Shown piece by piece: positions 1 to 19,440 of a stretch of DNA of 19,440 bases. The stretch lies in contig JBHHXT010000084.1 of assembly GCA_046757165.1 (NCBI GenBank), positions 1 through 19,440 of the forward strand. Direction: 5' to 3'. The notes beneath the pieces were generated by a model, which had not been told where the DNA came from, searched no databases, and worked only from the letters and a program-made list of their open reading frames with translations. Each line of letters begins with the position of its first letter. The first letter of the stretch is position 1. A program made the translations under genes and the position numbers. Source of the DNA: a bacterium (GTDB lineage: Bacteria > Zhuqueibacterota > Zhuqueibacteria > Oceanimicrobiales > Oceanimicrobiaceae).

Positions 1-1176
1 CCAGACTTGCTGCTGTAGGTGAGCCGGAATAATCTCGGTTGACACTCTCAGCGCCTTTTCAAAAACAGCATGAATGATGGTCCGCAAGTCAGACTCCCGT
101 ATGTCCTTCTCTAATAGTCTCTTGATGATAGGGTTGCTCAGATTCAAGAACAGTTCACCTTCCTCCCACAGAGAGACGCCCAGGCGGTAGTCATACTCGA
201 GGTAAATGGAATCTGGGTCAGACCCCCTAGCTCTTATGGATCTCAAGACATTGTTCTTCCGAGAATCCGACTTCTCTGCCGGAACCACCAGGGCAGGCAA
301 TTCGGAGCGCATGGCGACCACCGTGAGTCTTCGTCGATACCGTTCTCTTTCTTCATGGTCGGCGTTGAGCTGCGCTGACAGCTGATAGAAAAGTTCTTTG
401 TTGAATGGAGGCTGCTCTATGGTGCCCAGGATAGGGAGTACCTGGCGGCCGAATTCCTCGTACACTATTTGATGCTCCGTCATCAGGGTTCTGAAGAACA
501 TTCTTTGCGCGACGGACGGCAGATAGGCCACTGTTTTCTTTTCAGGAATTTGAAAATGCTCATCGAGCAGCCACGCGTTCACGGAAGAAACAATAACCGA
601 CGATGCAACCTTTTCCTCGAAATCTGAGAAGCCTACAAGATCAGTAGAGGTTTGGATGAGAAGGAGGTCAGCCAAAGTCTTCTGCAGCGACTTATCTTTG
701 AATAGCAGCCAGCCGGCATCATAGAGAGTCAGAATTTCCTTCAGGATATTGGACGGCAATTTGACAAAAGCCGTAGAAGTTGTGTCAAGAATGACTTGGT
801 GGATCTTGCTCTGCGCATCATCTAAAGCCTTGCGAAGGTTCGAAACCTTCGCAAGGTTGCTCTCGGGCAAACCCAGAATCGCGCAGAGAAAGCCACAAAT
901 ATTGGGCAGAATGTACAGCTCTTTGTCTGCTCGACGGAGCTCCGGGTTCTCCCGGGTACAAATGTAGACCTCCCCGGACTCGACATTCTGCTCCCGAAGA
1001 GAAATGGGTGCCAGGGCAAAAAGCACCCCTCGCACACAGCCCAGATCGCGGATAGTGGTCTCGAAGCGGCACAAGAACAAAGGGGGATTCATGTTGAATC
1101 TTGACAGAATCCAACTCAGGAGATCTGCGTCAGACAGATCGACAAAATTGGATCTCAGCAAGGGATTGCTGTTCAT
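1..1176 (-). CDS. Hsp90/HtpG-like middle + C-terminal domain protein lacking the N-terminal GHKL ATPase domain (3' end outside window, >=392 aa)
   Basis: Not in the ORF track because no stop is in the window. My translation from ATG 1176 (SD GAGGTG just upstream) is open to base 1: MNSNPLLRSNFVDLSDADLLSWILSRFNMNPPLFLCRFETT...VRGVLFALAP...GEVYICTRE...YILPNICGFLCAIL...RRLTVVAMRSELPALVV...GELFLNLSNPIIKRLLEK...IIHAVFEKAL. These segments are collinear with the neighbouring Hsp90 (DPPITIL / TCGLLFIP / GRVRLWCRR / LLPAWSRDFLSGII / LEIRTVKMSHRRDIPCML / VLYLNMDNELMLYL / AIHELW). Confidence 0.72.
   Translation of the reverse strand, partial: MNSNPLLRSNFVDLSDADLLSWILSRFNMNPPLFLCRFETTIRDLGCVRGVLFALAPISLREQNVESGEVYICTRENPELRRADKELYILPNICGFLCAILGLPESNLAKVSNLRKALDDAQSKIHQVILDTTSTAFVKLPSNILKEILTLYDAGWLLFKDKSLQKTLADLLLIQTSTDLVGFSDFEEKVASSVIVSSVNAWLLDEHFQIPEKKTVAYLPSVAQRMFFRTLMTEHQIVYEEFGRQVLPILGTIEQPPFNKELFYQLSAQLNADHEERERYRRRLTVVAMRSELPALVVPAEKSDSRKNNVLRSIRARGSDPDSIYLEYDYRLGVSLWEEGELFLNLSNPIIKRLLEKDIRESDLRTIIHAVFEKALRVSTEIIPAHLQQQVW
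828..859. repeat. REP-like palindrome embedded in frame in the CDS at 1..1176
   Basis: Perfect 13-bp inverted repeat ccttgcgaaggtt (828-840) / aaccttcgcaagg (844-856) with a 3-nt loop. The minus strand 859->828 matches the intergenic copy at 15323-15354 at 29/32 positions. Confidence 0.85.
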
Positions 1177-1221
1177 ATCACCTCGACCTCATGAATCGTG
1201 AGATGTTCTCAGGCGCAGAGT

Positions 1222-3399
1222 CTAAGCTTCTTCCTTCTGATCGAGCTTCATCTGTTTGTATTCATTGAGCTCTTTCCTGGCCTTTTTCCAAGGCTCGTAG
1301 ACATCGAGCAGCACACGGGTGAGGAAGTCGGTGGCGGTCTGGAAATGGTGCTCACTGTTGGGATGGGTGATGGGCTCGCCTCGGGCGATTTTGACGCCGT
1401 GCCAGAGCTCGTGAATCGCCGCACTGCGGAGTTTCTTTTCCTTGTCCGCCTCGAAGTTGTCGTTCCTGGCCAGATAGAGCATCAGCTCGTTGTCCATGTT
1501 GAGATACAAGACTTCCTTCAGGCCCTTTTTCCTGAAGGCATCGCGCGTTTTCTCTTCCTCTGCCAGGACGCGTGCCTGCGCCAACATTTCTGTGATGCGG
1601 CTGCGTGACAACGACTCTATCTTGAACGGTCCGTCTTTGAGCTGGCGTTTGATCTCATCGAACTCTTCGTCACTCATTTTGTTGAGCTGGCGCACATATT
1701 TCTCCTGTCGCATCTGGCTCGGGTTCTCACTGGTCAACATACAGGGGATGTCGCGGCGATGACTCATCTTGACGGTGCGGATTTCCAGGTTTCTCTTCTC
1801 GGCGTCGGTGCCGATCGCGTCCCGCACAATATCGATGAAACTGTCAAAATGCTGTGGGGCATCTTCAAAGGGCAGCTCGCGGCCAACATCCATGTATGAA
1901 AAGTTATTGAGATCGCACCACCGGTGCAGGAAGTTGACATCCTGGTCACTCGGGGCGTGCAGCACGGTTTCCTTCTCGATGATGCCAGCCAGGCTTCCCT
2001 CTCCCGTATAATAGTAAAGCGTGGTCAGATGCTGTTTCATTTGCTGTTGGTCATCCTGCGAAACCTTCGCGCCCAGCGGGACCTCCGACGCATCCCCGCG
2101 ACGGCGATTCATGCTGCGCTTATAATCTTCCAGCGTGACGAAGGATTCCGGGGCCTGGCCTTTCAGGCTGATCGCCTTGCGGAAGGGGATGGTATCGCCA
2201 ATCCGTTTCAGCAGTTCTTCATTAAGATTAGCGGCGTAGACGATTGCCGAGCGGTAGAGCACCAGAATGTTCTGCCACTGCTCGCTAAACCCGCTCAGGA
2301 TTCCCATCAAACGCACGATTTCGTTCTCTATCTCGGCCTTGAGCTCCAGGTATTCTTTCTCGTCCGAGCGCAACAGGTCGGTGCGCGAAAGATTCGGATC
2401 GGCCTTGCAGTCGATGATGCCACTCAAGAAGTCCCGACTCCACGCCGGCAGCAGATCTTCTTCATTGCTCTTGACGAAAATTCGCCGGCACCACAGCCGC
2501 ACGCGACCCATGTATGGGAACGAGGGCGAGGACGGAATAAAAAGCAGTCCGCAGGTTCTTGGGGTGCTCAACGGCAGAATGGTAATGGGCGGATCGACGC
2601 TCAGATCGGAATAGATCGTATCCCACAGATCCTGATAGCGCGCCTTGGGGTCGGTCGCGGCCTGCTGCCTGCGCTCGCTTGGGTGGCGGTAGAGAACGGG
2701 ATCCGGGCGACTTTGTCCAGCCTCGTAGATGACAGGCTCGAGAATGTTGACCGGATCACTAAGTTCCGTATTGATATAGATCTGGTACGGCAGGAAAATC
2801 CCATATTCCTTGATGATCGCCTCGAGGTTTTTTTCTTCCAGAATCTGGTCGCGATACGCTTCCTTGATGAAAAGCGTCACCCGCGTCCCGGGTTCCTGCC
2901 TCTTGCTGGTGGAGATCTGAGTCTCGGTCGAGCCCTCTTCCATACTCCACTGAATCGCCTCACGCTTCCCCTGCCGCCGGCTTCTCGATTCGATAACCAC
3001 TTTTTCGGCGATACACAGGCACGCCAGCCGGCCAATCGCATAGCGCCCGATCAGTCTTGACAGTTGTTCCTTGATGTCCTGCGTGCTCAGGTTTTTCTCC
3101 TTGAGCAGGTCTTCGAACCGCTGTCTTTTGTCGAGGTCCGCGCCGACCTTGTTCAGGACATCTGCTTCCTGGAGATCCATGCCGATGCCGTTGTCTTCGA
3201 TGACCAGGGTCGAGTTCGTTCGGTCCGGCCGGATCAGAATCTGCTTCGTCTGCCCGGGGGCGAAGAACTTATCGGCCATGGAAAGCGCATCTGCGGCATT
3301 GGCCAAAATCTCGCGGATGGCCATTTTCGGCTCGGGGTAGAGCAGCCCGGTCAGGAGTTTGATCACATCCGGGGCGAATTCGAGTTTTCCTTTTGGCAT
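1222..3399 (-). CDS. Divergent Hsp90/HtpG-family protein (GHKL ATPase + middle + C-terminal domains), 725 aa
   Basis: GHKL motifs AIREILANAADA (N-box), IEDNGIGM (G1), IGRYAIG (variant of IGQFGVG) and PGTRVTL (G3); middle-domain catalytic Arg loop NLSR; C-terminal LYLNMDNELM. SD GAGGTG before ATG 3399. Too divergent to call the housekeeping htpG. Confidence 0.92.
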   Translation of the reverse strand: MPKGKLEFAPDVIKLLTGLLYPEPKMAIREILANAADALSMADKFFAPGQTKQILIRPDRTNSTLVIEDNGIGMDLQEADVLNKVGADLDKRQRFEDLLKEKNLSTQDIKEQLSRLIGRYAIGRLACLCIAEKVVIESRSRRQGKREAIQWSMEEGSTETQISTSKRQEPGTRVTLFIKEAYRDQILEEKNLEAIIKEYGIFLPYQIYINTELSDPVNILEPVIYEAGQSRPDPVLYRHPSERRQQAATDPKARYQDLWDTIYSDLSVDPPITILPLSTPRTCGLLFIPSSPSFPYMGRVRLWCRRIFVKSNEEDLLPAWSRDFLSGIIDCKADPNLSRTDLLRSDEKEYLELKAEIENEIVRLMGILSGFSEQWQNILVLYRSAIVYAANLNEELLKRIGDTIPFRKAISLKGQAPESFVTLEDYKRSMNRRRGDASEVPLGAKVSQDDQQQMKQHLTTLYYYTGEGSLAGIIEKETVLHAPSDQDVNFLHRWCDLNNFSYMDVGRELPFEDAPQHFDSFIDIVRDAIGTDAEKRNLEIRTVKMSHRRDIPCMLTSENPSQMRQEKYVRQLNKMSDEEFDEIKRQLKDGPFKIESLSRSRITEMLAQARVLAEEEKTRDAFRKKGLKEVLYLNMDNELMLYLARNDNFEADKEKKLRSAAIHELWHGVKIARGEPITHPNSEHHFQTATDFLTRVLLDVYEPWKKARKELNEYKQMKLDQKEEA

Positions 3400-3445
3400 G
3401 ACACCACCTCATTTGTTCTATCAACGAATAAAATGCTTTGCGAAA

Positions 3446-3471
3446 GGCGACCCACAAGGGGTCGGGGCTAC
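3446..3471 (-). repeat. GTAG-type REP element
   Basis: Minus strand reads GTAG-ccc-CGACCC-cttgt-GGGTCG-cc: a GTAG tetranucleotide followed by a 6-bp stem hairpin, in the gap between the CHAT and Hsp90 genes. Confidence 0.6.
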
Positions 3472-3486
3472 CATGCAATGTTCGCG

Positions 3487-4569
3487 CTACTCAATCGCCG
3501 GGGGCGGAAAGCGCAGCTGCTCAGGCCTGGCCCAGGGATGGATGTAGAGTCTTGGCGCAAACGCGTTGAGCCATTCTCCGCCCTCGTTCAAATTGATGGC
3601 ATTCAATATCGCCGAACGGCCGTAACTGACCGCACGGGCAATGTGGCTGCCTTTTGCCATCGCCGTGTAAAAAGCGCGATAGAAAGGCGGCAACGTATAG
3701 TCCCACGGTCTGGGGTTCCAGGCCACCACCGCAGCAACCCCCTTGTCATTGAGCTGCACCGGGGGCTGCACAGCGCCGGGCCGGAAGTGGTCACTCACAC
3801 AACAAGTCAGAAGCACCATCTGAAGCGTTGCCACATCGCCGATCTGGTCGAGCAGCGGTTTCCACGGCTCCTCGCGGTTGCCAACGGAGATGCGTTCAGG
3901 ATGATGGTCATCTGCTGCGTCAGCAATGATATCCACCAGATTCACGCGCTTGGAACACAAGTCCTCATAAACCTCCCGACCGTTATCCCCGGTGTACTCC
4001 ACTCGAGAGACAATTTCAAAATTGCGGGTCCGGCTGCTCAGGCTCGCCAACAAGCTGGACAAATTCTGCGCTTGTGTCGTCACGAGGAACTTCGAGTGTG
4101 AAGGAACGGAGACGATGGCCACACGCCACTTTTTCTCTTCAGCAACCGCAACGTTGCACTCTGCCAGCGAACCGAGGTTTGGCGAACGGGCAAGCACGAT
4201 GGAGGAGGGCAGGCGACCAAAGGGAAAGAAGAACGGCGGGCTCGTCCCCAGTGTGCAGCCGACCAGAGTCTCCCAGAAAACCTCAAAGGGCCTGACGTCA
4301 CCCGGCTGGCCATTCCTGACTTGCAGCAGAAGGGGGGCAAAGTCGAGGTTCTCGGTCACCGCACGTTCGAGCAAGTTTCGCAGCTCGTTCCGGTCCGTGC
4401 CGAAGATTCTATGAAACAGATGGCAGCCCGCCTGAAACCAATCGTCCCCGGCGGAGCCACCGACCGGCAGGGCCTCGAGGCGGCGCGCCTGCCGCCACCT
4501 TTCGAATCTTCCCTGGACGGTGTCCTCGCTGACTTCTAATTCAAAAATCTTCATCGCGGCCCTTTTCAT
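3487..4569 (-). CDS. CHAT (caspase-like, clan CD) domain protein, probably catalytically impaired
   Basis: CHAT-like motifs in the expected order: GCHLFHRIF, FWETL (for PWELL), WRVAIV, VNLVDIIADA (for IVHFAGHG), MVLLTCCVS (for LVVLNACxS), GVAAVVAW, FYRAFYTAMAKG...ARAVSYGR, EW...APRLY. Start overlaps the upstream stop (ATGA, 4566-4569); alternative start at ATG 4554. Confidence 0.75.
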   Translation of the reverse strand: MKRAAMKIFELEVSEDTVQGRFERWRQARRLEALPVGGSAGDDWFQAGCHLFHRIFGTDRNELRNLLERAVTENLDFAPLLLQVRNGQPGDVRPFEVFWETLVGCTLGTSPPFFFPFGRLPSSIVLARSPNLGSLAECNVAVAEEKKWRVAIVSVPSHSKFLVTTQAQNLSSLLASLSSRTRNFEIVSRVEYTGDNGREVYEDLCSKRVNLVDIIADAADDHHPERISVGNREEPWKPLLDQIGDVATLQMVLLTCCVSDHFRPGAVQPPVQLNDKGVAAVVAWNPRPWDYTLPPFYRAFYTAMAKGSHIARAVSYGRSAILNAINLNEGGEWLNAFAPRLYIHPWARPEQLRFPPPAIE

Positions 4570-5390
4570 TTGCCGGCGCGCGCCAGCTCGAGCGCTTGTT
4601 TGATCTGCGTTTCTGCTCTCTGATGGTGGCCTTGTTTTTTGTAGCAGTATGCCAGCATGAGCCTGAGCTCGAGAGACTCCTGCTTCCGCAGCAGCTCGTT
4701 GAGCAGTTTGCTCGCTGAATCCAGCTTTTCGGAATCGAGCTCTCCCAGCGCGTTTGCCAGGGCGCGCGCGCCCTCTGTAATATTTGGCGGCAATTGTTTT
4801 TCTTGCACCAGGCGGTGGATTGCTTTGGCGATCTCGTCTTCAGGCGTCTCACCCGACGCTCGCACGGGCCTTTCGGCGCCCAAATGCTGCGGCACAAATC
4901 CGATGGCCTCGTTAAAGCTCCGTTCTAGCGCGGCAGCGGTTTGGTCCAGGTTTGTTTCGAGCAGACGCCAGAAGGACCCGACCTGTTTTTTGGCTAAATC
5001 GTCGATTTCTTTGATGTGGCGGGCTAAGGTTGTCAGGATGGGAAAAGGGGGGGCGGTTGACTCCGAAGGCTCCGGCGCAGATGGTGTTCCAACCCTCGCA
5101 ACTGCTTCGGAGTAACTCATCCCGGGGTCAGGTTCACCGGCGGGTGCGCCATCACGCTGCCGCACAAGAATAGCGGGCGGCTCTGGAATAACATCCGGCC
5201 AGGGAATTCGTTCTTCGTCAAAGGCCCTGGAAAGAAACCTCCGATAGGCCGTCATGCACGGTTCACAAAGAAGGAGGTGATCTTGAATCAGGTTCTGCTG
5301 CTCTTCAGTCAGCTCCTCCAGCATCAGCTTTTCAAAGTGCTCCGACGCTTGCCCGCACGTTAGACTCCCACCTGTTTTTTTGTAAAACAT
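4566..5390 (-). CDS. Zinc-finger (zf-HC2/ZAS) anti-sigma-factor-like protein with C-terminal TPR-like helices, no transmembrane segment
   Basis: N-terminal LTCGQASEHFEKLMLEELTEEQQNLIQDHLLLCEPC has the C...H-x3-C-x2-C pattern of zf-HC2. A Pro-rich linker follows, then TPR-like ELRLMLAYCYKKQGHHQRAETQIKQALEL. No hydrophobic ~20-aa stretch. Confidence 0.8.
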   Translation of the reverse strand: MFYKKTGGSLTCGQASEHFEKLMLEELTEEQQNLIQDHLLLCEPCMTAYRRFLSRAFDEERIPWPDVIPEPPAILVRQRDGAPAGEPDPGMSYSEAVARVGTPSAPEPSESTAPPFPILTTLARHIKEIDDLAKKQVGSFWRLLETNLDQTAAALERSFNEAIGFVPQHLGAERPVRASGETPEDEIAKAIHRLVQEKQLPPNITEGARALANALGELDSEKLDSASKLLNELLRKQESLELRLMLAYCYKKQGHHQRAETQIKQALELARAGK

Positions 5391-5483
5391 GATTATTTGG
5401 GCCTATTTCTATCCATAACATGGCGCGGCGAAGCCGCATGATCTGAGCAGTTAATTGGTGCAAACATCGAGCACAAAAAAGTC

Positions 5484-5560
5484 TCATACAAAGACGCTAA
5501 GAGCACGAAGCTTTCACCTAAACCCTGTTTTTTCTTTGCGTACTTTGCGGCTTTGCGTGA
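5484..5560. repeat. Imperfect palindromic mini-element with tandem ctttgcg units
   Basis: Right arm ctttgcgtactttgcggctttgcgtga (5534-5560); degenerate complementary left arm tcatacaaagacgctaagagcacgaag (5484-5510). Confidence 0.65.
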
Positions 5561-5589
5561 TCAGAAACTCTTGGGCAGTGTAAATACAT

Positions 5590-7380
5590 TCAAAAAAGAA
5601 GCAAATCATGATATTTTCCGAAACACTGGTCTCGATAGCTGGTAACCACTTCGTTAAATCTATTCAACATCTCGACATGCCTGGTGAGCGTCTGGTACGC
5701 TTCTTCCACTTCAGGGGATTTGTTCTCTATTGAAGCATAAGCATCGTGGATCTTTTTTTCCGTTTTTGGACCGACTTTCTCGATCGCGTTCTTAGCTAAG
5801 GTTGTGGCCACTGCGGAATTAAGTTTGAGCGCAACACAAGAGTTTCTTAATTCTTTCATCTCAACCTGGTGGCGGAACATATCCTCGAGACAGAATTTCT
5901 TATACCTGGTAATAATCCCATCATAAATATCCCAGACAAACTCAAAATGGTCGGCACTAAGAAACTGGTCCAGGTGAGCTTTTACCTTCTTGACGATCTG
6001 TTGCTGCTGCATAGCGGTCGTTTGCGCCAAATTCTGCCCGAGCGTCTTGTCGGTCAATTCATTGATGAAGTAGCGACTATTGGCACGCAAAAAGGATCCG
6101 AGCTTCTTTTTCCTGTTGGCAGCAAGGTCAGCGAGCCATTTGTCAATGAGCAGCAGGATGACATAGACAGACACCTTGACGTCCCGGAGGTACTTTTTTC
6201 TGCGGCTTCGCAATTGGTCATAGTTATTCTCAATATCTCTTGCTTTTTTTAGTGGGTAGATGATGCTCTGGCAGAATCTGCGATATCTACTGCCTGTATG
6301 TTCGAACAGCTCACCAACAAAATCCGATTCAATTTCGCGAGCAAGCTGCGAAATATCCTTTTGCCATATCTCATTCACAGGCAAAACATCCCACGGCAAC
6401 GAAATATATTGCAGCGTAAGGTGAGCAAATTCACATTTGCAATACAAAATATGGGCTTTGACGAACAACCGAAATTTTTCACCGGCGCTTTTGCGCTCGA
6501 GTTTCTGGAATAGCCGGTGCCATTGCGTCACCAGTTCCACTACACCATCAATATTGAACATCTCTGAGTCTGGTCTTGTTGCAATGAATTGATCCAGACT
6601 TTGTTCAGCATCGAGTGTTTCCTCATTCAGTGAGAGCCAATATATTTCTTTGTACCGCTTATTTTCTGCGTTGCAGCCTTTCTGTAGCAGAGAGTCGAAT
6701 CTTTCGTTGATCGGAGCATCCTCCGTGTTCTCGTCCCATACCAGAGCCGGTGTCATGATCTCCGGCAAAAGCGCTGCGAGCAACGACCGATTTAGTATGA
6801 TGATTTCCACTTCTGTTCTGTTGCGTTTGTCCTTCTGAAGGATGGTTTTGGCACGACCCGTGAGCCGCAGCCGTGACATGAGCGCCTTCAGGTTATCCGG
6901 AAGATCCATGTCATGCAAAGTCCTATTGATGGCAACGACCAGTTGGCTCTTCAAGACTCTCACGGCCTTTTTGTCTGGTTGTCCACCCGTCACCTGAGCT
7001 TCTAATTTCTCTATTGCTGGTGTTCTTTTGCGCAATTTCGCGACTAACCCCCGCATTGCAGGTGTGGACGGCTTTCGCAAGCTGTCAAAAAACACCTGCC
7101 AATCGACGATATCCTCACTGTCAAGCCGCCAGATTCTCGATTTCTGCTCCGCTGCTTCCGCAAATTTGCCGCCACTAACTCGAGTATCCACCTTGAAGAT
7201 TGCGGCCTGTGCAGCGTTCCCAATGATTTGTTCCTTTCGCTCTCGATCACTCGTCCAAATAAACCGCGACCCAATGACCCAGGCTCGGGTCCATAAGATG
7301 TTGAAAACCTGCTCAAAAGCGGTGTCCTGCCCTGCTTGCCATCCTGAAAAAATTTCTTTGGTGATCCTGGGCGTCGACAA
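5590..7380 (-). CDS. Large (596 aa) protein with ECF sigma-factor region-2-like N-terminus; putative highly modified ECF sigma factor
   Basis: TTG start 8 nt after SD GGAGGGG. The N-terminus WQAGQDTAFEQVFNILWTRAWVIGSRF...NAAQAAIFKV resembles the ECF 'GDxxAFExLy...a..a.r......AeD..QeaF.k' pattern. It lies directly upstream of a ZAS gene, the usual sigma/anti-sigma order. The CDS is solid; the product call is tentative. Confidence 0.55.
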   Translation of the reverse strand: MSTPRITKEIFSGWQAGQDTAFEQVFNILWTRAWVIGSRFIWTSDRERKEQIIGNAAQAAIFKVDTRVSGGKFAEAAEQKSRIWRLDSEDIVDWQVFFDSLRKPSTPAMRGLVAKLRKRTPAIEKLEAQVTGGQPDKKAVRVLKSQLVVAINRTLHDMDLPDNLKALMSRLRLTGRAKTILQKDKRNRTEVEIIILNRSLLAALLPEIMTPALVWDENTEDAPINERFDSLLQKGCNAENKRYKEIYWLSLNEETLDAEQSLDQFIATRPDSEMFNIDGVVELVTQWHRLFQKLERKSAGEKFRLFVKAHILYCKCEFAHLTLQYISLPWDVLPVNEIWQKDISQLAREIESDFVGELFEHTGSRYRRFCQSIIYPLKKARDIENNYDQLRSRRKKYLRDVKVSVYVILLLIDKWLADLAANRKKKLGSFLRANSRYFINELTDKTLGQNLAQTTAMQQQQIVKKVKAHLDQFLSADHFEFVWDIYDGIITRYKKFCLEDMFRHQVEMKELRNSCVALKLNSAVATTLAKNAIEKVGPKTEKKIHDAYASIENKSPEVEEAYQTLTRHVEMLNRFNEVVTSYRDQCFGKYHDLLLF

Positions 7381-7925: not shown

Positions 7926-9032
7926 CTACGAAGCCACCGCCCGCGCCGGGACACGGAGGAGATCACAAATGATGCTCTCCGCAACCCGCTCCAGGCGAGC
8001 GGCCGCCTCACGGACCACCGGGTCCGAGCTAAGCGCTCGACCGATCTGCTCGATGCGACTCAGGTTGCCGAGGATGAGCTTGTAGATGGGGACACACTGG
8101 TTGCCGTGGCCCCATACGACTTCGAGCCGCAGGAGCTCACCAAAGGCCCGGGTGAGTTTCGCAAACAGCTCGAGCGCGCGCTGCGGCAGCGCGTTGATGT
8201 GGATGCCCTCCAGACCGCCGAGCCCGGACAAGAAATCCCAGATCGCCGGTTGCGGATAGACCGTCGCAAAAAATTCCAGCAGCAGGTCGCTGATGCTGGC
8301 GCGCAGCTCACACAATTCACCGCTGAGACACAGATACAACAATTCAACGGCGTGCTGGAAATGGGTCAGCGCCAGGGCTTGCGCCGTCAACATGCCGACG
8401 CGCTGGTCCTCATGCCAGGCTGCCTGGAAGACATGGCGCCCGAGCCGGTACATCAGGTCGTCGAGGCGCGAGACAACATCGACGCCGCTTTGCCCCAACA
8501 ACCCGGCCGTTCCGTCGCGAAAGGGCGAGAGCCGGATGGTGTACGCCTCATGGCCCCAGCTCATCAGCTTGGCAAACCGCTCATCCAGAAGCGGGTAGCC
8601 CGGGCTCATGTAGTAGTCCTGCACGATGAGACTGTAATCAGCCCAGCAGTCGCTCTGCACCCGGCACAAGTAGTAGACCGGCATGCCATAGTCGAGCATG
8701 CGCACCTCGAACTTGAGGTCGGACCGTCCCAGGTCGCCAAGCGTGCTGCGCAATTGCATTTGGTCGGCCAGGGAGACCTTCTGTTTGCCGAAGCGGCTCT
8801 CCAGGGTGAACTCTTCCTTCAGCAGGGCGGTCATCCGGGCAACCTGCGAGATGGGCCCGCCCTGCCGGGCGAGCCGCAGCCGCAATTCATCGTAGAGACG
8901 AAGCTGTTGCAGCAAGGGCTGCAGCAAAGTTTCGGTCACTTGTGGCTCGCTGGCATAGCTATAGCCATAGCTGTACCAATCGTCCCTGGCACCAGGCTGC
9001 CCACCCTCTTTGTTTTCATGTTCTGACTTCAT
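7926..9032 (-). CDS. Hypothetical protein (~368 aa), last gene of the AAA/MoxR/vWA block
   Basis: Long ORF starting 17 nt after the vWA stop. SD GAGGTG (9044-9039) favours ATG 9032 over the track's GTG 9041. No family motif recognised. Confidence 0.8.
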   Translation of the reverse strand: MKSEHENKEGGQPGARDDWYSYGYSYASEPQVTETLLQPLLQQLRLYDELRLRLARQGGPISQVARMTALLKEEFTLESRFGKQKVSLADQMQLRSTLGDLGRSDLKFEVRMLDYGMPVYYLCRVQSDCWADYSLIVQDYYMSPGYPLLDERFAKLMSWGHEAYTIRLSPFRDGTAGLLGQSGVDVVSRLDDLMYRLGRHVFQAAWHEDQRVGMLTAQALALTHFQHAVELLYLCLSGELCELRASISDLLLEFFATVYPQPAIWDFLSGLGGLEGIHINALPQRALELFAKLTRAFGELLRLEVVWGHGNQCVPIYKLILGNLSRIEQIGRALSSDPVVREAAARLERVAESIICDLLRVPARAVAS

Positions 9033-9049
9033 TGCATTCACCTCATGCT

Positions 9050-11209
9050 TTATCGTTGTCGAGCTACCAACTTGTTTCTTTCGTTCAGGCAGGAGGCGAC
9101 GTAGACGGCGATCTTGCGCGCCACGGCCTGATAATCCGTCAGCTCCGTCCGGGTGACCCGGATGACTTTATCGAGCAGCTCTTCAAAGCCCGTTTTGCTT
9201 TCCACACCGAGCGCCACCAGCGTGGTGTGGAGCTTGTTTTGGCAGGAATCGTACAAGGACTCGAACAGCGACAGCACCTCCTGCTGGCCGGTTTTCTTGC
9301 CATTGAACGAGCGGTTCCAGGCGCAGTCGGTCAGGAGGATCAAATAGACCATTCGGCCCCGCGCCACGGCCTGCGCCTCTTGCATCATGAAGGCAAGGGA
9401 AAGCGCGTCCGATTGCACGCCGGTTCCGGTGTCTGGCAGGGTCACGACGGCCCGCGCCGCCTGCGGGCGGCCCGTTGTGGGCGTCTTCTTCGGGTGATAA
9501 ATCCACTGCACCAGCGGCCCGGCCGTCCCGGGCCGAATCGTGCCGCTGTGGTAAAGTCCGGCCAGAACCTGAATCTCGGTTTTGGCTGTGGACGTGAGCC
9601 AGGCGGCAGCAAGAAGCTTGAGCAATTGCATTTGGTTGTGATTCAACGATCCCGAGCCATCGCAGGCGATGACCAGAACCGGTCTCCCGCGACGGTCCGC
9701 CTGCTCGTGAATCCGCCAACGTTCGAAGATGGCGAGGGAAAAGTAGGCCAGGGGCAAGCGTGAATTGTCAAACCTGCTGCCGCTGGTGCAGAACCGTTGG
9801 ACGATTGGCAGTTGTTCGACGTTCGGATACAGAACGCGGCGGAGCTCTTCGGTCAGGTGTTTCGAGTCGTTCACAAGCTGTTCGTAGGCGGGCAGATCAT
9901 CCGAGAGTTCCACCGGCCGGTCAAAAAGCTCACCGTGCGCGGTTTCATTTTCGCCAAGCTGCACCGTCACCTCATGGCCGTCGGCGGGATTGCCTTCAAC
10001 CGGGCCGGGTTCAAAACCACTCGCCCGCAGGGCGACCTCGACCAGGTCGGAACGCATGTCCTCCCACTCCTTCTGCTGTCCGCCCGCTTGCATGACGGTT
10101 TCGCTGAAGTCGGTCAGGAGCTCCTGGACTGCCTCCGGCACCGCCTCATCCATCTCACCGGAAGGGGGCGAAAGGGTGTCCTCGTATTCGTTCCGGCCGG
10201 CATTCAGCATGGACTCTTGAACCTGCTCAGGCAGATCGCCTCGCTCAAAAAGCGAAGGCGGCTGCTGTCCATCCAATGGCGGGACGTTTTCGTCGAAAGT
10301 GGGGCTGGCTGGTTTGTTGTCAAACTCGAAGTCCATGGCCTCGCCCGCCTTTTGCAACCGTTCCAGGATATCAGCAGGCAGAGACTCCCTGTGGTCGCGT
10401 GGCGCTGATTTTGGCAGAAAGTGGGCAAGCTGGCGGCATATATCGGCAACCCACATGGCACCGAGGTCGACCAGCTCATCTGATCTGGTCTCAGAAATGA
10501 CCGCAAAATAGGTCGCACTGGCGGTCCACACGACGTGAAAGATTCGCTGTGTCATGGGATGGAGCCCGAGCGCTTGCCAATTCGGGTAGATGTCCCCGTA
10601 CAAAACAACCCCCTCGACAATTTCAGGCAGCGACCGGAATTTGAGATTTTGCATGGAGGCCGAAAAGAGACGATAGACCTCGACCGCTGCCATGCCGGGC
10701 GTGCGCGAGAGGTCTTCCATGAGCAAGCGCGTCTCGACGATCTTCGTGACCCGCACCGCCACCTCCTTGTAGACCCCTGGCTCGGCCTCCACCTGGTCGT
10801 GGCCGGCCGGATCCTCGAGGTAGTTTTGCACATATTCCTGCAGCGTGCTCCCCTGTGCCCGTGCCCGGAACTCCAGGAAGCCGGTCAGACCGATTGCGGC
10901 AAAGGCGGCATGCGTTGCCGGATAAGTCGAGTAGCATGGGCTGATCTGCGGCTTGACCAGTGGCTTGAAGCCGTTGCCATTGGATTGCCCGGAGAGCCGG
11001 GCCGCAGCCCGCTGGTACCGCTTCACCAACCGATAGAACATCTTTTGTGCCGGCAGGCGCACGTAGTAGTCGAGGTTCGCTTTGAAAGCGTCGCCAACGC
11101 TGATTCCAGCCCAGTCCGTCTTGCTGCGACGCGGCCGGTAGGAATAGGAGGCGCCGGAGTCTGACTCGTGGAGCGTCATTTGTACGGCGTGGTCGGGTCT
11201 TGTGGTCAT
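9050..11209 (-). CDS. von Willebrand factor A (vWA) domain protein, MoxR/CobT-type partner, 719 aa
   Basis: C-terminal MIDAS motifs VLVIACDGSGS (DxSxS), TGTGVQSDALSL and LILLTD, preceded by a SGSRFD..RL segment and an acidic/Pro-rich linker. SD GAGGAG before ATG; adjacent to a MoxR-like ATPase. Confidence 0.88.
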   Translation of the reverse strand: MTTRPDHAVQMTLHESDSGASYSYRPRRSKTDWAGISVGDAFKANLDYYVRLPAQKMFYRLVKRYQRAAARLSGQSNGNGFKPLVKPQISPCYSTYPATHAAFAAIGLTGFLEFRARAQGSTLQEYVQNYLEDPAGHDQVEAEPGVYKEVAVRVTKIVETRLLMEDLSRTPGMAAVEVYRLFSASMQNLKFRSLPEIVEGVVLYGDIYPNWQALGLHPMTQRIFHVVWTASATYFAVISETRSDELVDLGAMWVADICRQLAHFLPKSAPRDHRESLPADILERLQKAGEAMDFEFDNKPASPTFDENVPPLDGQQPPSLFERGDLPEQVQESMLNAGRNEYEDTLSPPSGEMDEAVPEAVQELLTDFSETVMQAGGQQKEWEDMRSDLVEVALRASGFEPGPVEGNPADGHEVTVQLGENETAHGELFDRPVELSDDLPAYEQLVNDSKHLTEELRRVLYPNVEQLPIVQRFCTSGSRFDNSRLPLAYFSLAIFERWRIHEQADRRGRPVLVIACDGSGSLNHNQMQLLKLLAAAWLTSTAKTEIQVLAGLYHSGTIRPGTAGPLVQWIYHPKKTPTTGRPQAARAVVTLPDTGTGVQSDALSLAFMMQEAQAVARGRMVYLILLTDCAWNRSFNGKKTGQQEVLSLFESLYDSCQNKLHTTLVALGVESKTGFEELLDKVIRVTRTELTDYQAVARKIAVYVASCLNERNKLVARQR

Positions 11210-11339: not shown

Positions 11340-12350
11340 TCAAAACAAGTTCTCAGCAAGGTCCAGCTCTTCCTCGTGCACGGAGTGCAGGCCGAACACT
11401 TTGTTGAGCACGCCAGGAATCAATTTCTTGTCTTCATCGCTGGCATTGCCCAGGAGGGTGGCCAGGGCCACTTGCTGCAGCGTCAGGTGCCGCATCTTTT
11501 CGGCCATGGTCAGGAAGGCCAGATAGCCGTAGATGGTTGGCGGTGGCACCGATTGCAGCGCGCCTTCCGAGCGCGCCTTGCGAATGGTCTGGCCCATGTT
11601 CACGACCTTCTCGACCAGCTCATGATCGGCCTCTTGCTTTGCGGCGCGCAGGAGGTGCTTCAGCACGATGACTTCGTGTTCTGCAGGCAGATAATCCAGA
11701 GTCAAGTTGATCGAAAACCGCCTTTTGAGCGCATCATCGAGCGTCACCAGCGTGTGCGTCGAGTCGCTTTCCGCCTGATAATTGCTGTCGGCGACCCAGG
11801 CGATGCCCTGCCCGGCGATGCGCGTGGCATCCGGCAAGATGATGTCGCCTTTGGTCATGAGGTTCAACAGCCCGCCCTGCACGCTGGAGGAATGGACGCG
11901 CCCCATTTCACGCAGCCAGATCAGCGGGTAGGCGGCGTTCTTGTTGGCGGCGATTTCTTCCAGTGCCTGCACCAGCGTGCTCTTTTCATCATAGGTGGTG
12001 CCATTGGCCAGGGCACGGCGTTGGTACAGCTCACCCGGGGCCTCGAAAGTCGCCATCTCGATGGGATAGACCTCGAGCGGCTTTTCGGTGAATTTCAGCG
12101 CTGCGGCCACCGGCATGAAGTTGTCCGGCACCAGATACAGGGCCTCCAACAGCGAGCTCTTCGCACTGCCCGTGGGCCCGCTCAAGTGGATAAACTCGTG
12201 ATTGACAATGCCGTAAACCAGCGTCTCGAGTACCCATTTGCTGATGAAAAGCGGGGTGCCGCCGGGCACGGGTTCCAGCATAATCAGATCGGTTGGTCCG
12301 GCAGTGAGGTACTCCTTTTGTCTGCTGACGCGAAAGATTTGTTTAGCCAT
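11340..12350 (-). CDS. MoxR/CbbQ/NirQ-like AAA+ ATPase, 336 aa
   Basis: Walker A GPTGSAKS, Walker B region LIWLREMGR (canonical LDEINR), VQGGLLNLM, sensor-1 VADSN, Arg finger LDDALKRRF, LDYLPAEHE. SD GGAGGAG. Confidence 0.88.
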   Translation of the reverse strand: MAKQIFRVSRQKEYLTAGPTDLIMLEPVPGGTPLFISKWVLETLVYGIVNHEFIHLSGPTGSAKSSLLEALYLVPDNFMPVAAALKFTEKPLEVYPIEMATFEAPGELYQRRALANGTTYDEKSTLVQALEEIAANKNAAYPLIWLREMGRVHSSSVQGGLLNLMTKGDIILPDATRIAGQGIAWVADSNYQAESDSTHTLVTLDDALKRRFSINLTLDYLPAEHEVIVLKHLLRAAKQEADHELVEKVVNMGQTIRKARSEGALQSVPPPTIYGYLAFLTMAEKMRHLTLQQVALATLLGNASDEDKKLIPGVLNKVFGLHSVHEEELDLAENLF

Positions 12351-12520: not shown

Positions 12521-14752
12521 TCAAATGAAGGAAAGCTGTAATTGCGCTGCGCCCGGCACCGCTTGCACCACCAGTGTCTTGCCCGCAGGTGGTGGCTTGC
12601 GCTCCTGCACCTGCATCAGGGCGGCGGCGCTCATGGCCCGGGCTTTCTCCAACAGGGCGCGCGCGCCGGAAGAGAGAATGTTCTCGTCAAAAGCCTTCAT
12701 CAGGTCCGAGCCCAGACCGCCCGCGAGCTGCACTTGCCCAACCTCCAGTCGCAGCCGTTCACACCCCGAAACCAGGGCCTGGCGCACAGCGGTTTCGACG
12801 ATGGCCGCCAGAGCCCCCTCGTCCAGGGGCTCGAACATGATCGGCGACCCCACACGGCTCAAAAACGCATTGGAGAGCATCTCCTTTATTTCGAATTCGA
12901 CCCGCTTGCGGACCTCGCGCTGGGACAGGGTGTTTTGGAACCCCAGGACTTTGCGCACCGACTCGTCGAGATTGTTGGGCAGATTGATGGTGAAAGCAAA
13001 AATGAGATTGGCGCACGAAAACATGGCCCCCGCAGCGCTCTGAGCCTCTCCCGTCTCCAGCACCTGCAGAAACAAGTCCGCCAGCGCCGCGCGGACGGCG
13101 GGCACCGCGTGGTCGAGGTCACTGACTTCGATCACGGCGCCGGTGTGGTGTTTGGCGGCTTCTTCCAGACGACCGCTTTTATGGGAGTCCACAATGCCAC
13201 GGGCGGAGCCGAGCAATTGCGACCGCGCCGTATAGTGGTCTGGCATGCTGGCTGCGTCGATATTGATAAACGGCACGCCAAGCCTCTGAGCGATCAAGTA
13301 AGCACTTTTCGACTTTCCTGTTCCCGGCGTCCCCTGCGCCAGATATCGGATCGGCTGGTGTGCCGGGCGCGTCAGGCACTCCATCTGCAGACGCGAGACC
13401 AGCTCGGTGAGCGCATCATCCTGCCCGAGCAGCTCGCTCTGCAAAAACGGCAGCAGGTCCGGGTCTGTCAAAGCGCTGGTCAGCCGTTCTTGCACGCGTG
13501 GCGACCGGGACGGCGTCCGCTTCTGGTCGAGCCCGGAGAATGTTTCCACCAGGGTTTGCACGTTGGCCAGGAATTCGCTGCCGCCCGCGAAGCTGTCGCC
13601 GCGATGCCAGGCGCCGATCTCCCGGTTGACCAGGAATGGCAGAAGACGCAGCCGGTCCGAAACAGGGACGGTTTCCAGCACCTGCATGATATTCTTCTGA
13701 ATTTTTTCCGCCTCGGCCTGTGGGATTCCGCCTCCTGCCGCGCCGAAATGGCGCACGGCAAACCGGGTGAGCACCTCCAGGGGAATTTCTGGGCAGTGGC
13801 GCACCACCGGAGAAAGCGGATCATGCTCGCCCCCCTGGCCGCCGCGAAAAACAGCCTGCAACTGTTGATAGGTGCCGGTAAAAAGCACGGCCTTCTGGCT
13901 GGCAGCCAGCGCCTGCAGCAAGGCCCGTACTTCGCGGCCCAATTCATACGGATTCGAGCCAAGATTGAGGGTGACGGCCGGCAGAACCAGGACCCCGGGC
14001 GCCTTGCCAGCCAGCTCGATCACGGCCGGCGCCGGAATGGCCGGCAGTTTGAACCGACCGAAAGAGCGTCCGCTCTGCTGTCCCGCCCAGGCCAGGGCAG
14101 AAAGCGCGAACTGCTCGACAATGGCGCACGGCACGGCGAGGGCAACAGTCAACCCGGCGGTCAAGTAGTCGACGGTCTCAGCAGCCCAAGCATGCACGTC
14201 GATAAGCGCACCGCTATCCTCGTCCCACGCCACAACCGGGTCCAGAAACTTTGCCACAGGTTTATATTGTTTCAGCAAGCTGATATCCTGCCGCACCGCC
14301 GGCAGCTCAGCTTGCAGTGATTTTGCCAGCGCGTCAATTTTTTGCACTTCAGACAAAAAAGCGTTCGAGCGCGTCAGGGACATGGGTGCCGCCCGGACCT
14401 GCATTTCGACCCAGAGCGAGACTTCATCGGACTCAGGCTCCTGTGTTGTCCGCCAGCGCACCTTGTCACTTAGACCGGATAAACGTTGCATCATGTTAAC
14501 CAGCGAGACACGCATGTCAGCGCCGGCCCGCACTAGCTCGAACAGCACGGTCATGGTTTCCGCGCCGAGCTCGCCCCTGGCCGCCAGGATGCCCGGCTCA
14601 TTTGCCCCTTCACGCCTGGCAGCATGAAAAATGTCAGACGGCGTGCGCCAGACAACATCCAGGTTGAGGGCGCGCTGGAGCAAGTCTGCGACTTGCCCGA
14701 AAGCTTGTTCCGCAGAAGTCGAACAGTAAAGGCTTCTTTCTAGTGGCTCCAT
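12521..14752 (-). CDS. Clp/Hsp100 D2-type AAA+ protein with degenerate motifs and an unrecognised N-terminal region, 743 aa
   Basis: The C-terminal ~310 aa follow ClpA/B D2: LLGQDDAL, Walker A GTPGTGKS, SQLLGSARGIVD (for SRLIGAPPGYVG), VIEVSDLDHA (for LLDEIEKA), LFLQVLETGE, IFAFTIN, FLSRV..PIMFEPL, GARAL. The central part looks like a relic AAA fold without a Walker A motif. Confidence 0.85.
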   Translation of the reverse strand: MEPLERSLYCSTSAEQAFGQVADLLQRALNLDVVWRTPSDIFHAARREGANEPGILAARGELGAETMTVLFELVRAGADMRVSLVNMMQRLSGLSDKVRWRTTQEPESDEVSLWVEMQVRAAPMSLTRSNAFLSEVQKIDALAKSLQAELPAVRQDISLLKQYKPVAKFLDPVVAWDEDSGALIDVHAWAAETVDYLTAGLTVALAVPCAIVEQFALSALAWAGQQSGRSFGRFKLPAIPAPAVIELAGKAPGVLVLPAVTLNLGSNPYELGREVRALLQALAASQKAVLFTGTYQQLQAVFRGGQGGEHDPLSPVVRHCPEIPLEVLTRFAVRHFGAAGGGIPQAEAEKIQKNIMQVLETVPVSDRLRLLPFLVNREIGAWHRGDSFAGGSEFLANVQTLVETFSGLDQKRTPSRSPRVQERLTSALTDPDLLPFLQSELLGQDDALTELVSRLQMECLTRPAHQPIRYLAQGTPGTGKSKSAYLIAQRLGVPFINIDAASMPDHYTARSQLLGSARGIVDSHKSGRLEEAAKHHTGAVIEVSDLDHAVPAVRAALADLFLQVLETGEAQSAAGAMFSCANLIFAFTINLPNNLDESVRKVLGFQNTLSQREVRKRVEFEIKEMLSNAFLSRVGSPIMFEPLDEGALAAIVETAVRQALVSGCERLRLEVGQVQLAGGLGSDLMKAFDENILSSGARALLEKARAMSAAALMQVQERKPPPAGKTLVVQAVPGAAQLQLSFI

Positions 14753-15322: not shown

Positions 15323-15356
15323 CAACCTTGCGAAGGGATTGAACCTTCGCAAGGTT
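15323..15356. repeat. REP-like palindrome (intergenic copy of the element at 828-859)
   Basis: aaccttgcgaagg (15324-15336) / ccttcgcaaggtt (15344-15356), a perfect 13-bp stem with a 7-nt loop. Confidence 0.85.
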
Positions 15357-15451
15357 TGTTCGCTTGAATGTACGGTGAGAAAATTTTTCTGCATCTTGGT
15401 TGGTTGGTTGTATTTTTTTGTTGGAAACCAACCAGAAAGGACGGACAGCCC

Positions 15452-15919
15452 ATGACGATTCAGCAGGCAGCTTTCAGGATTCTCCACGAAAGGTCAAGAC
15501 CAATGTCAGCGAAAGAGATTGCTCAGACCGTATTAGATAGGAAGTGGAAGAAAAGCGATTCCCGGGATCCGGTGACTTCCCTGGCACAGGCGCTCGAGAA
15601 AAACATCCGTGGCGGGGTGTATAATGATCCGGAGCTCGTTTTCATTCGCGGTGAACGAGGCCGGCGGATAGGGCTGCCGGCGTGGAAGGATGTCCGAACC
15701 GTTCCTGCACCCGACACCTCGAGCACGCGAGAAATCAGATTGTATATTCCGGAGACCCTGCACGACAAGCTGCATCTTGCAGCTCAGGCCAAGATCGCCA
15801 GCTCTTTTGAAGAAACCGTGATCGTGGTTCTGCAGAAAGGACTGAACGCCCTTTCTGCGCAAATCAAACAAGGTGTCGCAAAACAGCTCGACCAACTCGA
15901 TGAATTGTGCAGCTTATGA
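15452..15919 (+). CDS. HARE-HTH (HB1/ASXL/restriction endonuclease winged HTH) protein with a C-terminal ribbon-helix-helix-like segment, 155 aa
   Basis: ATG 15452 after AAAGGA. MTIQQAAFRILHERSRPMSAKEIAQTVLDR...DPVTSLAQAL...FIRGERGRRIGLPAW matches the HARE-HTH pattern (AA..IL.....PM...EI......P..S....L....F.R...G..GL..W). EIRLYIPETLHDKLHLAA is RHH-like. Confidence 0.78.
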   Translation: MTIQQAAFRILHERSRPMSAKEIAQTVLDRKWKKSDSRDPVTSLAQALEKNIRGGVYNDPELVFIRGERGRRIGLPAWKDVRTVPAPDTSSTREIRLYIPETLHDKLHLAAQAKIASSFEETVIVVLQKGLNALSAQIKQGVAKQLDQLDELCSL

Positions 15920-19283: not shown

Positions 19284-19364
19284 ATGAGAGATCATACGAA
19301 ACTTCGGGCTTTTGAGTTAGCCGACGAATTGGCATTGAGAATCTATCAAAAACGTACAGCCTAA
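19284..19364 (+). pseudogene. Truncated four-helix-bundle protein gene (23S rRNA IVP / S23-like family), 26-aa remnant
   Basis: Translates MRDHTKLRAFELADELALRIYQKRTA*, matching the N-terminus of the four-helix-bundle family (L.a...a.el...iY) but stopping inside the flanking repeat before the conserved FP..E.YGL..Q.RR core. Confidence 0.75.
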
Positions 19365-19373
19365 ACACCTACG

Positions 19374-19440
19374 ATGCAAAACAAACTCATCGGCCAAACC
19401 ATTGCCGGCAAATACCGCCTGCTCAGCCATCTCGGCTCCG
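19374..19440 (+). CDS. Probable Hanks-type Ser/Thr protein kinase, 5' fragment
   Basis: MQNKLIGQTIAGKYRLLSHLGS(G...) matches the typical bacterial kinase start 'iG..l.grYrl...LGxGgmG' (subdomain I). Only 22 codons are visible. Confidence 0.65.
   Translation, partial: MQNKLIGQTIAGKYRLLSHLGS

Follow-up and report, generated by a model that had tools for sequence, protein, structure and literature searches.

A headless Hsp90 paralogue behind a full-length Hsp90 in an accessory chaperone cluster of an uncultured deep-sea bacterium

Introduction

Why would a bacterium encode an Hsp90 without its ATPase head directly behind a complete Hsp90? This question is raised by a 19,440-nt stretch of DNA, referred to here as the window, which constitutes the whole of one contig (JBHHXT010000084.1, here C84) in the genome of an uncultured deep-sea bacterium of the Oceanimicrobiaceae (GCA_046757165.1, here G000; 6.1 Mb, 531 contigs). 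The sequencing runs containing this contig are hydrothermal-vent metagenomes. On the minus strand, a gene for a full-length Hsp90 (3399→1222) is followed by an open reading frame (ORF) that starts at position 1176 and runs off the contig at position 1. A preliminary description, made from the sequence alone, took this ORF for a headless Hsp90 paralogue consisting of the middle and C-terminal domains only. As the Hsp90 dimer forms via the C-terminal domain and clamp closure needs both heads, such a protein could be expected to pair without being able to close. We examined what the ORF encodes, where similar genes occur and which roles are compatible with its surroundings.

Results

Domain content of the headless ORF

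Sequence searches of Pfam, NCBIfam, PADLOC and the PDB with the ORF (1..1176, minus strand; 392 aa or more, truncated at the contig end) returned no Hsp90 match, and BLAST against the neighbouring Hsp90, to which it is about 18% identical, reached only E 0.016. The comparison with the Hsp90 middle and C-terminal domains at the level of profiles and structures, which the preliminary description had called for, revealed the similarity. When 10 full-length Hsp90s, without the ORF, were used to build a profile of their middle and C-terminal parts, this profile scored the ORF at 26.1 bits (E 1.7e-10), the best of 1000 shuffled sequences scoring 4.9, and hhalign gave 96% over 355 columns. When the whole genome was searched with a full-length Hsp90 profile, the ORF was found at E 2.3e-4. 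The ESM Atlas model of the ORF, which is independent of the alignments made here, matched HtpG-type models with TM values of 0.51-0.55 over about 290-315 residues, and the nearest ESM Atlas feature clusters carry PF00183. These three lines, namely the two profile comparisons and the ESM Atlas model, constitute the independent evidence of identity.

An alignment-guided AlphaFold model (pLDDT 65, mostly 70-90 over residues 11-200) was superposed through its residues 7-392 on residues 230-615 of E. coli HtpG (VIA Z 9.6, rmsd 8.7, 268 aligned) and matched the HtpG middle domain 2gq0 (VIA Z 10.0, rmsd 5.3, 215 aligned); as this model was built with Hsp90 rows, its matches to Hsp90 are partly circular. 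A single-sequence AlphaFold model (pLDDT 32) was set aside. The Hsp90 middle-domain fold was found in the ORF by the profile, by the ESM Atlas model and by the guided-model alignment.

The model begins at HtpG residue 230, which is the boundary of the middle domain. The ORF has no GHKL motifs and no HATPase match in Pfam, and the 45 nt up to the upstream stop leave no room for an N domain. At the other end, HtpG has 624 aa and the model reaches residue 615, so that almost the whole Hsp90 fold lies within the window and the cut does not fall until late in the C-terminal domain. The strand and helix signature of this domain can be followed to HtpG 615, the last helix being cut by the contig end, where model confidence is low. 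The ORF also lacks the NxSR catalytic loop, reading NLAKVSNLRK instead. It is, in fold and domain content, a retained ATPase-less Hsp90 paralogue, in agreement with what had been proposed from the letters. As Pfam and BLAST do not see this class, such proteins may be overlooked.

Reading frame and start of the headless gene

The frame stays open over 392 codons up to the contig start, where it is truncated. When its bases were shuffled, none of 20,000 permutations was free of stops, and its GC content by codon position (0.55/0.36/0.60) is gene-like. The spacer to the Hsp90 stop (1177..1221, minus strand) measures 45 nt and carries two GAGGT Shine-Dalgarno-like motifs just before the ATG. The intact frame, the distance and the separate ribosome-binding signal thus all stand as first described, and the headless gene is probably co-transcribed with the specialised full-length Hsp90. 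No RNA dataset containing the contig was present among the listed runs.

Loss of the N domain by a frameshift was rejected, as there is no upstream room and positions 833-3500 are identical in the X1 and X2 run contigs, which show no differences over this interval but may be the source data themselves. Run contigs extend 42-340 nt past the ORF-side end of the contig. Elsewhere in the assembly, the search for a continuation of the ORF yielded no end overlap and no convincing profile match at contig ends. Variants of the ORF in run contigs comprise six changed and three silent codons and no stop; these are 9 of the 15 differences of a depth-3 contig, those listed, and are uninformative.

A palindromic element at the catalytic loop

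The loop of the ORF corresponds to a palindrome measuring about 42-44 bp (819..862), which resembles repetitive extragenic palindromic (REP) elements, lies in frame at the catalytic-loop position and encodes the peptide NLAKVSNLRKALD. With four mismatches or fewer, its core occurs at 44 genome sites, 5 of them within ORFs of at least 150 aa and 39 outside long ORFs, and its hairpin z is -3.4. It is thus a short palindrome with many, mostly extragenic copies, as is typical of a REP. The column of the conserved arginine holds K110, and in another alignment it was taken by the REP-derived R115, five residues further on; the catalytic-loop arginine is accordingly missing. The loop fits the length of full-length Hsp90s only with the element present, so that the element has either taken the place of the original loop or closed a gap that a previous deletion had left. 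A mis-join at the REP is unlikely, given that both flanks are collinear with Hsp90 in one frame.

The other four in-frame copies apparently lie in linkers of one large hybrid protein and two kinases; they are found in three long ORFs on contigs C11, C365 and C424, with two copies in one ORF and two reading frames used. REPs and Rickettsia palindromic elements are likewise multi-copy, mostly intergenic palindromes that are occasionally in frame. The copy in the ORF differs in being located at a catalytic-loop position, whereas the others are apparently in linkers. A second, degenerate copy in the window (15323-15354) is situated just upstream of the HARE-HTH gene. A tblastn match of the ORF on contig C74 proved to be the REP alone and was discarded.

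The full-length partner

The upstream gene (1222..3399, minus strand) encodes a divergent full-length Hsp90 of 725 aa with Pfam HATPase_c_3 and HSP90 matches. It scores below the NCBIfam cut-offs of both HtpG PRK05218 (151 vs 371 bits) and PRK14083 (131 vs 455 bits), forms its own clade in a 23-row tree and has a few orthologues at 46-54% identity. The residues E30, N34, D69, G71, G73, G118, G123, T172 and the loop arginine R339 are kept, one lid glycine being replaced by alanine. Since the canonical htpG of the genome is located separately on contig C103, this Hsp90 is an accessory copy. Its upstream spacer contains a second, different repeated element (3447..3482) that occurs at 26 genome sites and is common to unrelated contigs.

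Further Hsp90-type architectures were encountered outside the phylum. A Pseudanabaena plasmid encodes an Hsp90 that is broadly similar in type and is extended at its C-terminus by a TIR-like part, with TIR, TPR, vWA and AAA genes nearby (L022:11938-14571), and a Streptomyces protein combines an HD-like N-terminal part with a central Hsp90-type ATPase domain (L014:8603-11539).

Related clusters within the phylum

Among the 167 genomes of the phylum survey, extra divergent Hsp90 loci were found in G000 and in two further genomes, G144 and G154, each from a different family. The locus in G144 (contig C14, about 22,900-56,000; L016, L021) extends over about 33 kb in one direction. Its first part comprises a DO-GTPase2-like gene, a 588-aa ORF, GAP1-N2, ClpB, a kinase, a large TPR-like gene, J-like and GrpE-like genes and an 865-aa Hsp70. 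ZorA/ZorB-like genes, two full Hsp90s, a headless Hsp90, CHAT-FGE, a sigma-like gene and a zf-HC2 anti-sigma gene make up the second part. The headless protein of G144 scored 40.9 bits (best shuffle 7.4; hhalign 97.5%), also lacks the loop arginine and has a terminal, coiled-coil-like extension of about 110 residues with weak SMC/Rad50 coil matches and no recognisable effector. Its frame is linked to a full Hsp90, with 28 nt to the end of the open frame.

The window locus and that of G144 have CHAT, zf-HC2 anti-sigma, sigma-like, ClpB and kinase genes in common. Contig C170 of G000 encodes a J-like protein (motif identified by eye), GrpE and an 850-aa Hsp70, which is the best match to the Hsp70 of G144. 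Long Hsp70s of this kind are present in 4 of the 167 genomes, namely the three with extra Hsp90s and G141 (67% complete), and the order TPR, J-like, GrpE-like, Hsp70 is found in both G144 and G154. The accessory cluster is thus composed of ClpB, a kinase, TPR proteins, the trio of J-like protein, GrpE-like protein and long Hsp70, and CHAT-like, anti-sigma and sigma-like proteins, partly across contigs.

In G154, type VI secretion genes (tssM- and tagF-like) and an ORF of 970 aa directly precede two tandem full-length-type Hsp90s, the second of which is cut by the contig end (C1094; L017:7061-10246); another of its contigs carries two tandem long Hsp70 paralogues behind the TPR, J-like and GrpE-like genes (C1158; L050:4798-8787). 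In G141, J-like, GrpE-like and long Hsp70 genes are followed by a 610-aa protein whose start is TIR-like by eye (C361; L051:1-5847). A broken Hsp90 piece was noted in G162 (C275).

Distribution and origin

Homologue searches with the G144 headless protein returned nothing beyond itself. No headless gene was found within about 5-6 kb of 20 PRK14083-type loci (L023-L042), and a 466-aa frame in G503 that had been considered as a headless Hsp90 was a false positive. In one profile scan of the phylum genomes, the matches to both headless genes were by construction.

The two headless proteins barely align (best BLAST E 0.05). In quick trees with long branches (35 and 23 rows, the partial L013 row being left out), the headless branches measured 3.5-4.6 substitutions per site, about 4 for the ORF in the window, and a single origin of both was neither shown nor rejected (p-AU 0.36). 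They may be independent derivatives. The preliminary description had proposed to look for the same pair in other genomes: a headless gene stands behind full-length Hsp90s in G144, among matching neighbours, and is absent from the 525 nt available after the partner's orthologue in L011. The preliminary description had also raised a strain-specific truncation, which is weakened by the occurrence in another family, although only as far as two barely alignable proteins of possibly separate origin allow.

In L012/L013, the partner's orthologue is in two pieces: one lies inverted upstream of the CHAT-like gene, and the other is joined to an integrase fragment. A repeat array resembling CRISPR was seen in L012 near 5336-5689.

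Neighbouring genes in the window

The gene preceding the full-length Hsp90 encodes a CHAT/caspase-like protein of 360 aa (3487..4569, minus strand), and in L011 and L013 the Hsp90 orthologues are likewise preceded by such a gene. It has no Pfam match; the three non-self matches of its family profile (E < 1e-3) all fall on Pfam CHAT domains, and hhalign gave E 0.03. By eye, its cysteine motif is kept and the histidine position is occupied by aspartate, the His-Cys dyad motif being present in L013; the protein in the window is possibly inactive, to judge from these residues. It is preceded by a zinc-finger anti-sigma-like protein with TPRs (274 aa; 4566..5390, minus strand; weak Pfam zf-HC2 and TPR matches), whose zinc finger aligns with the zf-HC2 protein of G144 (E 0.001). 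The next gene encodes a 596-aa protein (5590..7380, minus strand), the counterpart of the 482-aa gene beside the anti-sigma in G144. Its N-terminal part matches the G144 protein at E 0.002, hhalign to ECF sigmas gave only E 0.01, and no TIGR02937 match was obtained. We label it sigma-like tentatively, mainly on account of its position.

Also on the minus strand, a Clp-like protein (12521..14752; Pfam/NCBIfam) with a single intact Walker A in the second AAA module and none in its N-terminal part heads an operon of MoxR-like, vWA-like and unknown genes. These are a MoxR/CobS-like AAA+ ATPase (11340..12350; weak AAA_5 and CobS matches, below cut-off), a 719-aa protein without a Pfam match (9050..11209), whose DGSGS motif, spotted by eye, we take to be vWA-like, and a 371-aa protein of no known family (7926..9041; no Pfam, NCBIfam or PADLOC match). 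On the plus strand, a HARE-HTH protein (15368..15919; Pfam E 4e-10) is followed by a ClpA/B-like AAA+ protein (16386..19187; Pfam/NCBIfam), the best match in G000 to the ClpB of the G144 locus (31% over 758 aa, E 7e-101). A short frame at 19284-19361, apparently a remnant, begins with MRDHTKLRAFELAD and is similar to the N terminus of 23S IVP/Avd-like four-helix-bundle proteins. The window ends within a Ser/Thr kinase gene (19374..19440, plus strand), which continues on contig C376 through a 55-nt overlap and is followed there by a TPR protein.

Discussion

The ORF shares its middle and C-terminal fold with bacterial Hsp90 (HtpG/hsp90A and the paralogues hsp90B and hsp90C), all three domains and the catalytic residues of which are present in its neighbour, and differs in lacking the whole GHKL domain and the NxSR loop. 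Judged from the models, it would fall outside Hsp90 on account of the ATPase domain and the catalytic arginine, while a client-binding and dimerisation fold is predicted to be present. In the parts of the earlier surveys that were accessible, HTPG measures 588-681 aa and bacterial paralogues are full-length (Chen 2006, PMC1525184), and the only bacterial paralogues are A, B and C (Press 2013, PMC3708813). No description of a headless bacterial Hsp90 was found in the literature covered, outside of which lay most subscription papers, figures and preprint supplements. The pairing of a headless Hsp90 with full-length paralogues, within an accessory cluster that is itself rare, is a real and apparently undescribed variant. 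The nearest ESM Atlas clusters by features and structure, which carry PF00183 only and measure 319-467 aa, a length that suits a headless Hsp90, may point to a wider class; they could be real headless families or gene fragments.

The reading that we favour, tentatively and at somewhat under even chances, is that the headless protein is a non-catalytic partner subunit in a dedicated, conflict-type accessory chaperone cluster, in which a heterodimer would set a threshold. Dimerisation is obligatory for Hsp90, and a middle-domain loop communicates with the N domain, according to the available part of a study that addressed Hsp90 asymmetry with engineered heterodimers (PMC5018835). The headless protein would pair with the full-length Hsp90 through its apparently retained C-terminal domain, and the resulting dimer, with one ATPase head and no N-N closed clamp, would stay open and hydrolyse ATP slowly. 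It might hold a system-specific client, such as a kinase, a protease or an anti-sigma, for as long as no signal tips the equilibrium in favour of active homodimers, which would give a threshold for protease and sigma output. An adaptor or inhibitor role in a heterodimer, as first suggested from the letters, is plausible. In this view the cluster would resemble in its action the chaperone-thresholded conflict systems described by Kaur et al. 2020 and extend them by a layer of Hsp90.

Several features speak for such a partner. The protein begins where the middle domain does and apparently retains the C-terminal domain, which is needed to dimerise; its frame is intact at about 18% identity to its neighbour, the canonical htpG is separate and the catalytic residues of the full-length protein are kept. 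The order of full-length gene and then headless gene recurs in G144, in a different family, where the headless copy is likewise without the loop arginine. The two loci have neighbours in common, a long Hsp70 is found in all three genomes with extra Hsp90s, and the order of TPR, J-like, GrpE-like and Hsp70 genes is the same in G144 and G154.

A number of observations weigh against it. The synonymous codon usage of the ORF lies at the 10th percentile of 2055 long ORFs, the full-length Hsp90 being at the 89th, and a REP is located within the headless gene. No homologues of the ORF were found in 5.8 billion proteins (near lengths only) or 1.84 billion representatives. Headless Hsp90s are rare (2 of the 167 phylum genomes), and none was found in samples of 251 and 301 Actinomycetota genomes. 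In L011, the partner's orthologue (53% identity) has a CHAT-like gene upstream, and the 525 nt left behind it contain no headless gene; the L013 orthologue is broken and inverted. The headless protein of G144 groups with its own neighbours (90% SH-aLRT, long branches), contig C170 has no physical link to the window, and neither Hsp90 gave a PADLOC system match.

Part of this evidence would suit a dispensable relic, that is, an old truncated duplicate under relaxed selection that has stayed open by luck and tolerates a REP. The lack of homologues, the branch of about 4 substitutions per site, the in-frame REP, the low codon adaptation, the absence behind the L011 orthologue and the decay of the locus seen in L013 are all consistent with it. 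We nevertheless consider a relic quite unlikely, in view of 392 stop-free codons despite extreme divergence, fold signatures conserved over the whole length, a clean start at a domain boundary with its own Shine-Dalgarno-like motif, and the second case in G144; in-frame REPs, moreover, apparently also lie in the linkers of three other long, intact ORFs of the same genome. If the ORF were functional without mixing with the full-length Hsp90, it could form homodimers via its own C-terminal domain and serve as an ATP-independent holdase or scaffold for cluster proteins. Since it is only about 18% identical to the neighbour, the two dimer faces may no longer match; in addition, model confidence is highest in the client-binding middle domain, and G144 retains three adjacent paralogues. 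The tight linkage behind full-length Hsp90s in both loci (45 nt and 28 nt) favours a common complex, however, and the loss of the head would suit a regulatory partner better, which makes an independent holdase unlikely, albeit worth keeping in mind. The least likely of the explanations, to which we assign a small chance, is a decoy or sensor, in which an inactive chaperone domain would bind invader proteins or invader-made chaperone inhibitors and pass the signal on to the protease and sigma module, a role that has been suggested for inactive modules of conflict systems. It would explain the very fast divergence and the conflict-type neighbours in G144 (GAP1-N2, DO-GTPase2, ZorA/ZorB-like); yet no PADLOC match was obtained, the defence role is putative and, with two examples only, hypervariability is inseparable from drift.

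In the accessible text of Kaur 2020 (PMC7159879), GAP1-N2 systems contain HSP70, GrpE, DnaJ and a second, truncated HSP70; Hsp90 has no mention in the main text and two text supplements, a count that leaves the figures aside. GAP1-N2 (above cut-off), a DO-GTPase2-like gene, Hsp70, a kinase and an FGE-sulfatase domain link G144 to these systems, and the window resembles them in its MoxR-like/vWA-like pair and in the theme of a truncated chaperone paralogue, which is an HSP70 there. The GAP1-N2 GTPase/HSP70 theme is largely present in G144; G000 has Hsp70 and GrpE on C170, and differs in that no GAP1 or GTPase homologue was found in it using G144 queries. The NTPase switch of the cluster may be the MoxR/vWA-like pair in the window and GAP1-N2/GTPase in G144. 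Compared with the MoxR-vWA ternary system, the window has weak MoxR matches, a vWA motif only and, in Pfam searches, no VMAP, iSTAND, FtsH or beta-propeller partner. Both loci contain neighbouring genes for CHAT-like, zf-HC2 and sigma-like proteins and in this resemble modules of ECF sigma, zinc anti-sigma and CHAT such as Csx29-Csx30-Csx31-sigma of type III-E CRISPR; the differences are that the sigma is only putative, that the CHAT protein of the window apparently lacks the catalytic histidine and that no Cas7-11 was seen in either locus. A part of a 2026 preprint treats HSP90-like domains as switches in immune systems (10.64898/2026.10.19.760177). The fuller proposal, a complete second chaperone cascade of ClpB, J-like protein, GrpE, long Hsp70 and several Hsp90s in which an asymmetric Hsp90 heterodimer with a headless subunit gates a protease/sigma response in a conflict system, is possible but doubtful.

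If the ORF were a drifting relic, the interest of the locus would be reduced to the accessory chaperone cluster itself. A natural one-headed dimer, on the other hand, would provide a direct test of the purpose of the second ATPase head. Additional Hsp90 paralogues of bacteria would thereby acquire a function, and chaperone-gated conflict systems would be extended by an Hsp90 level. The recurrence in a distant relative hints at lopsided Hsp90 machines in bacteria, each serving a dedicated system of defence or stress response.

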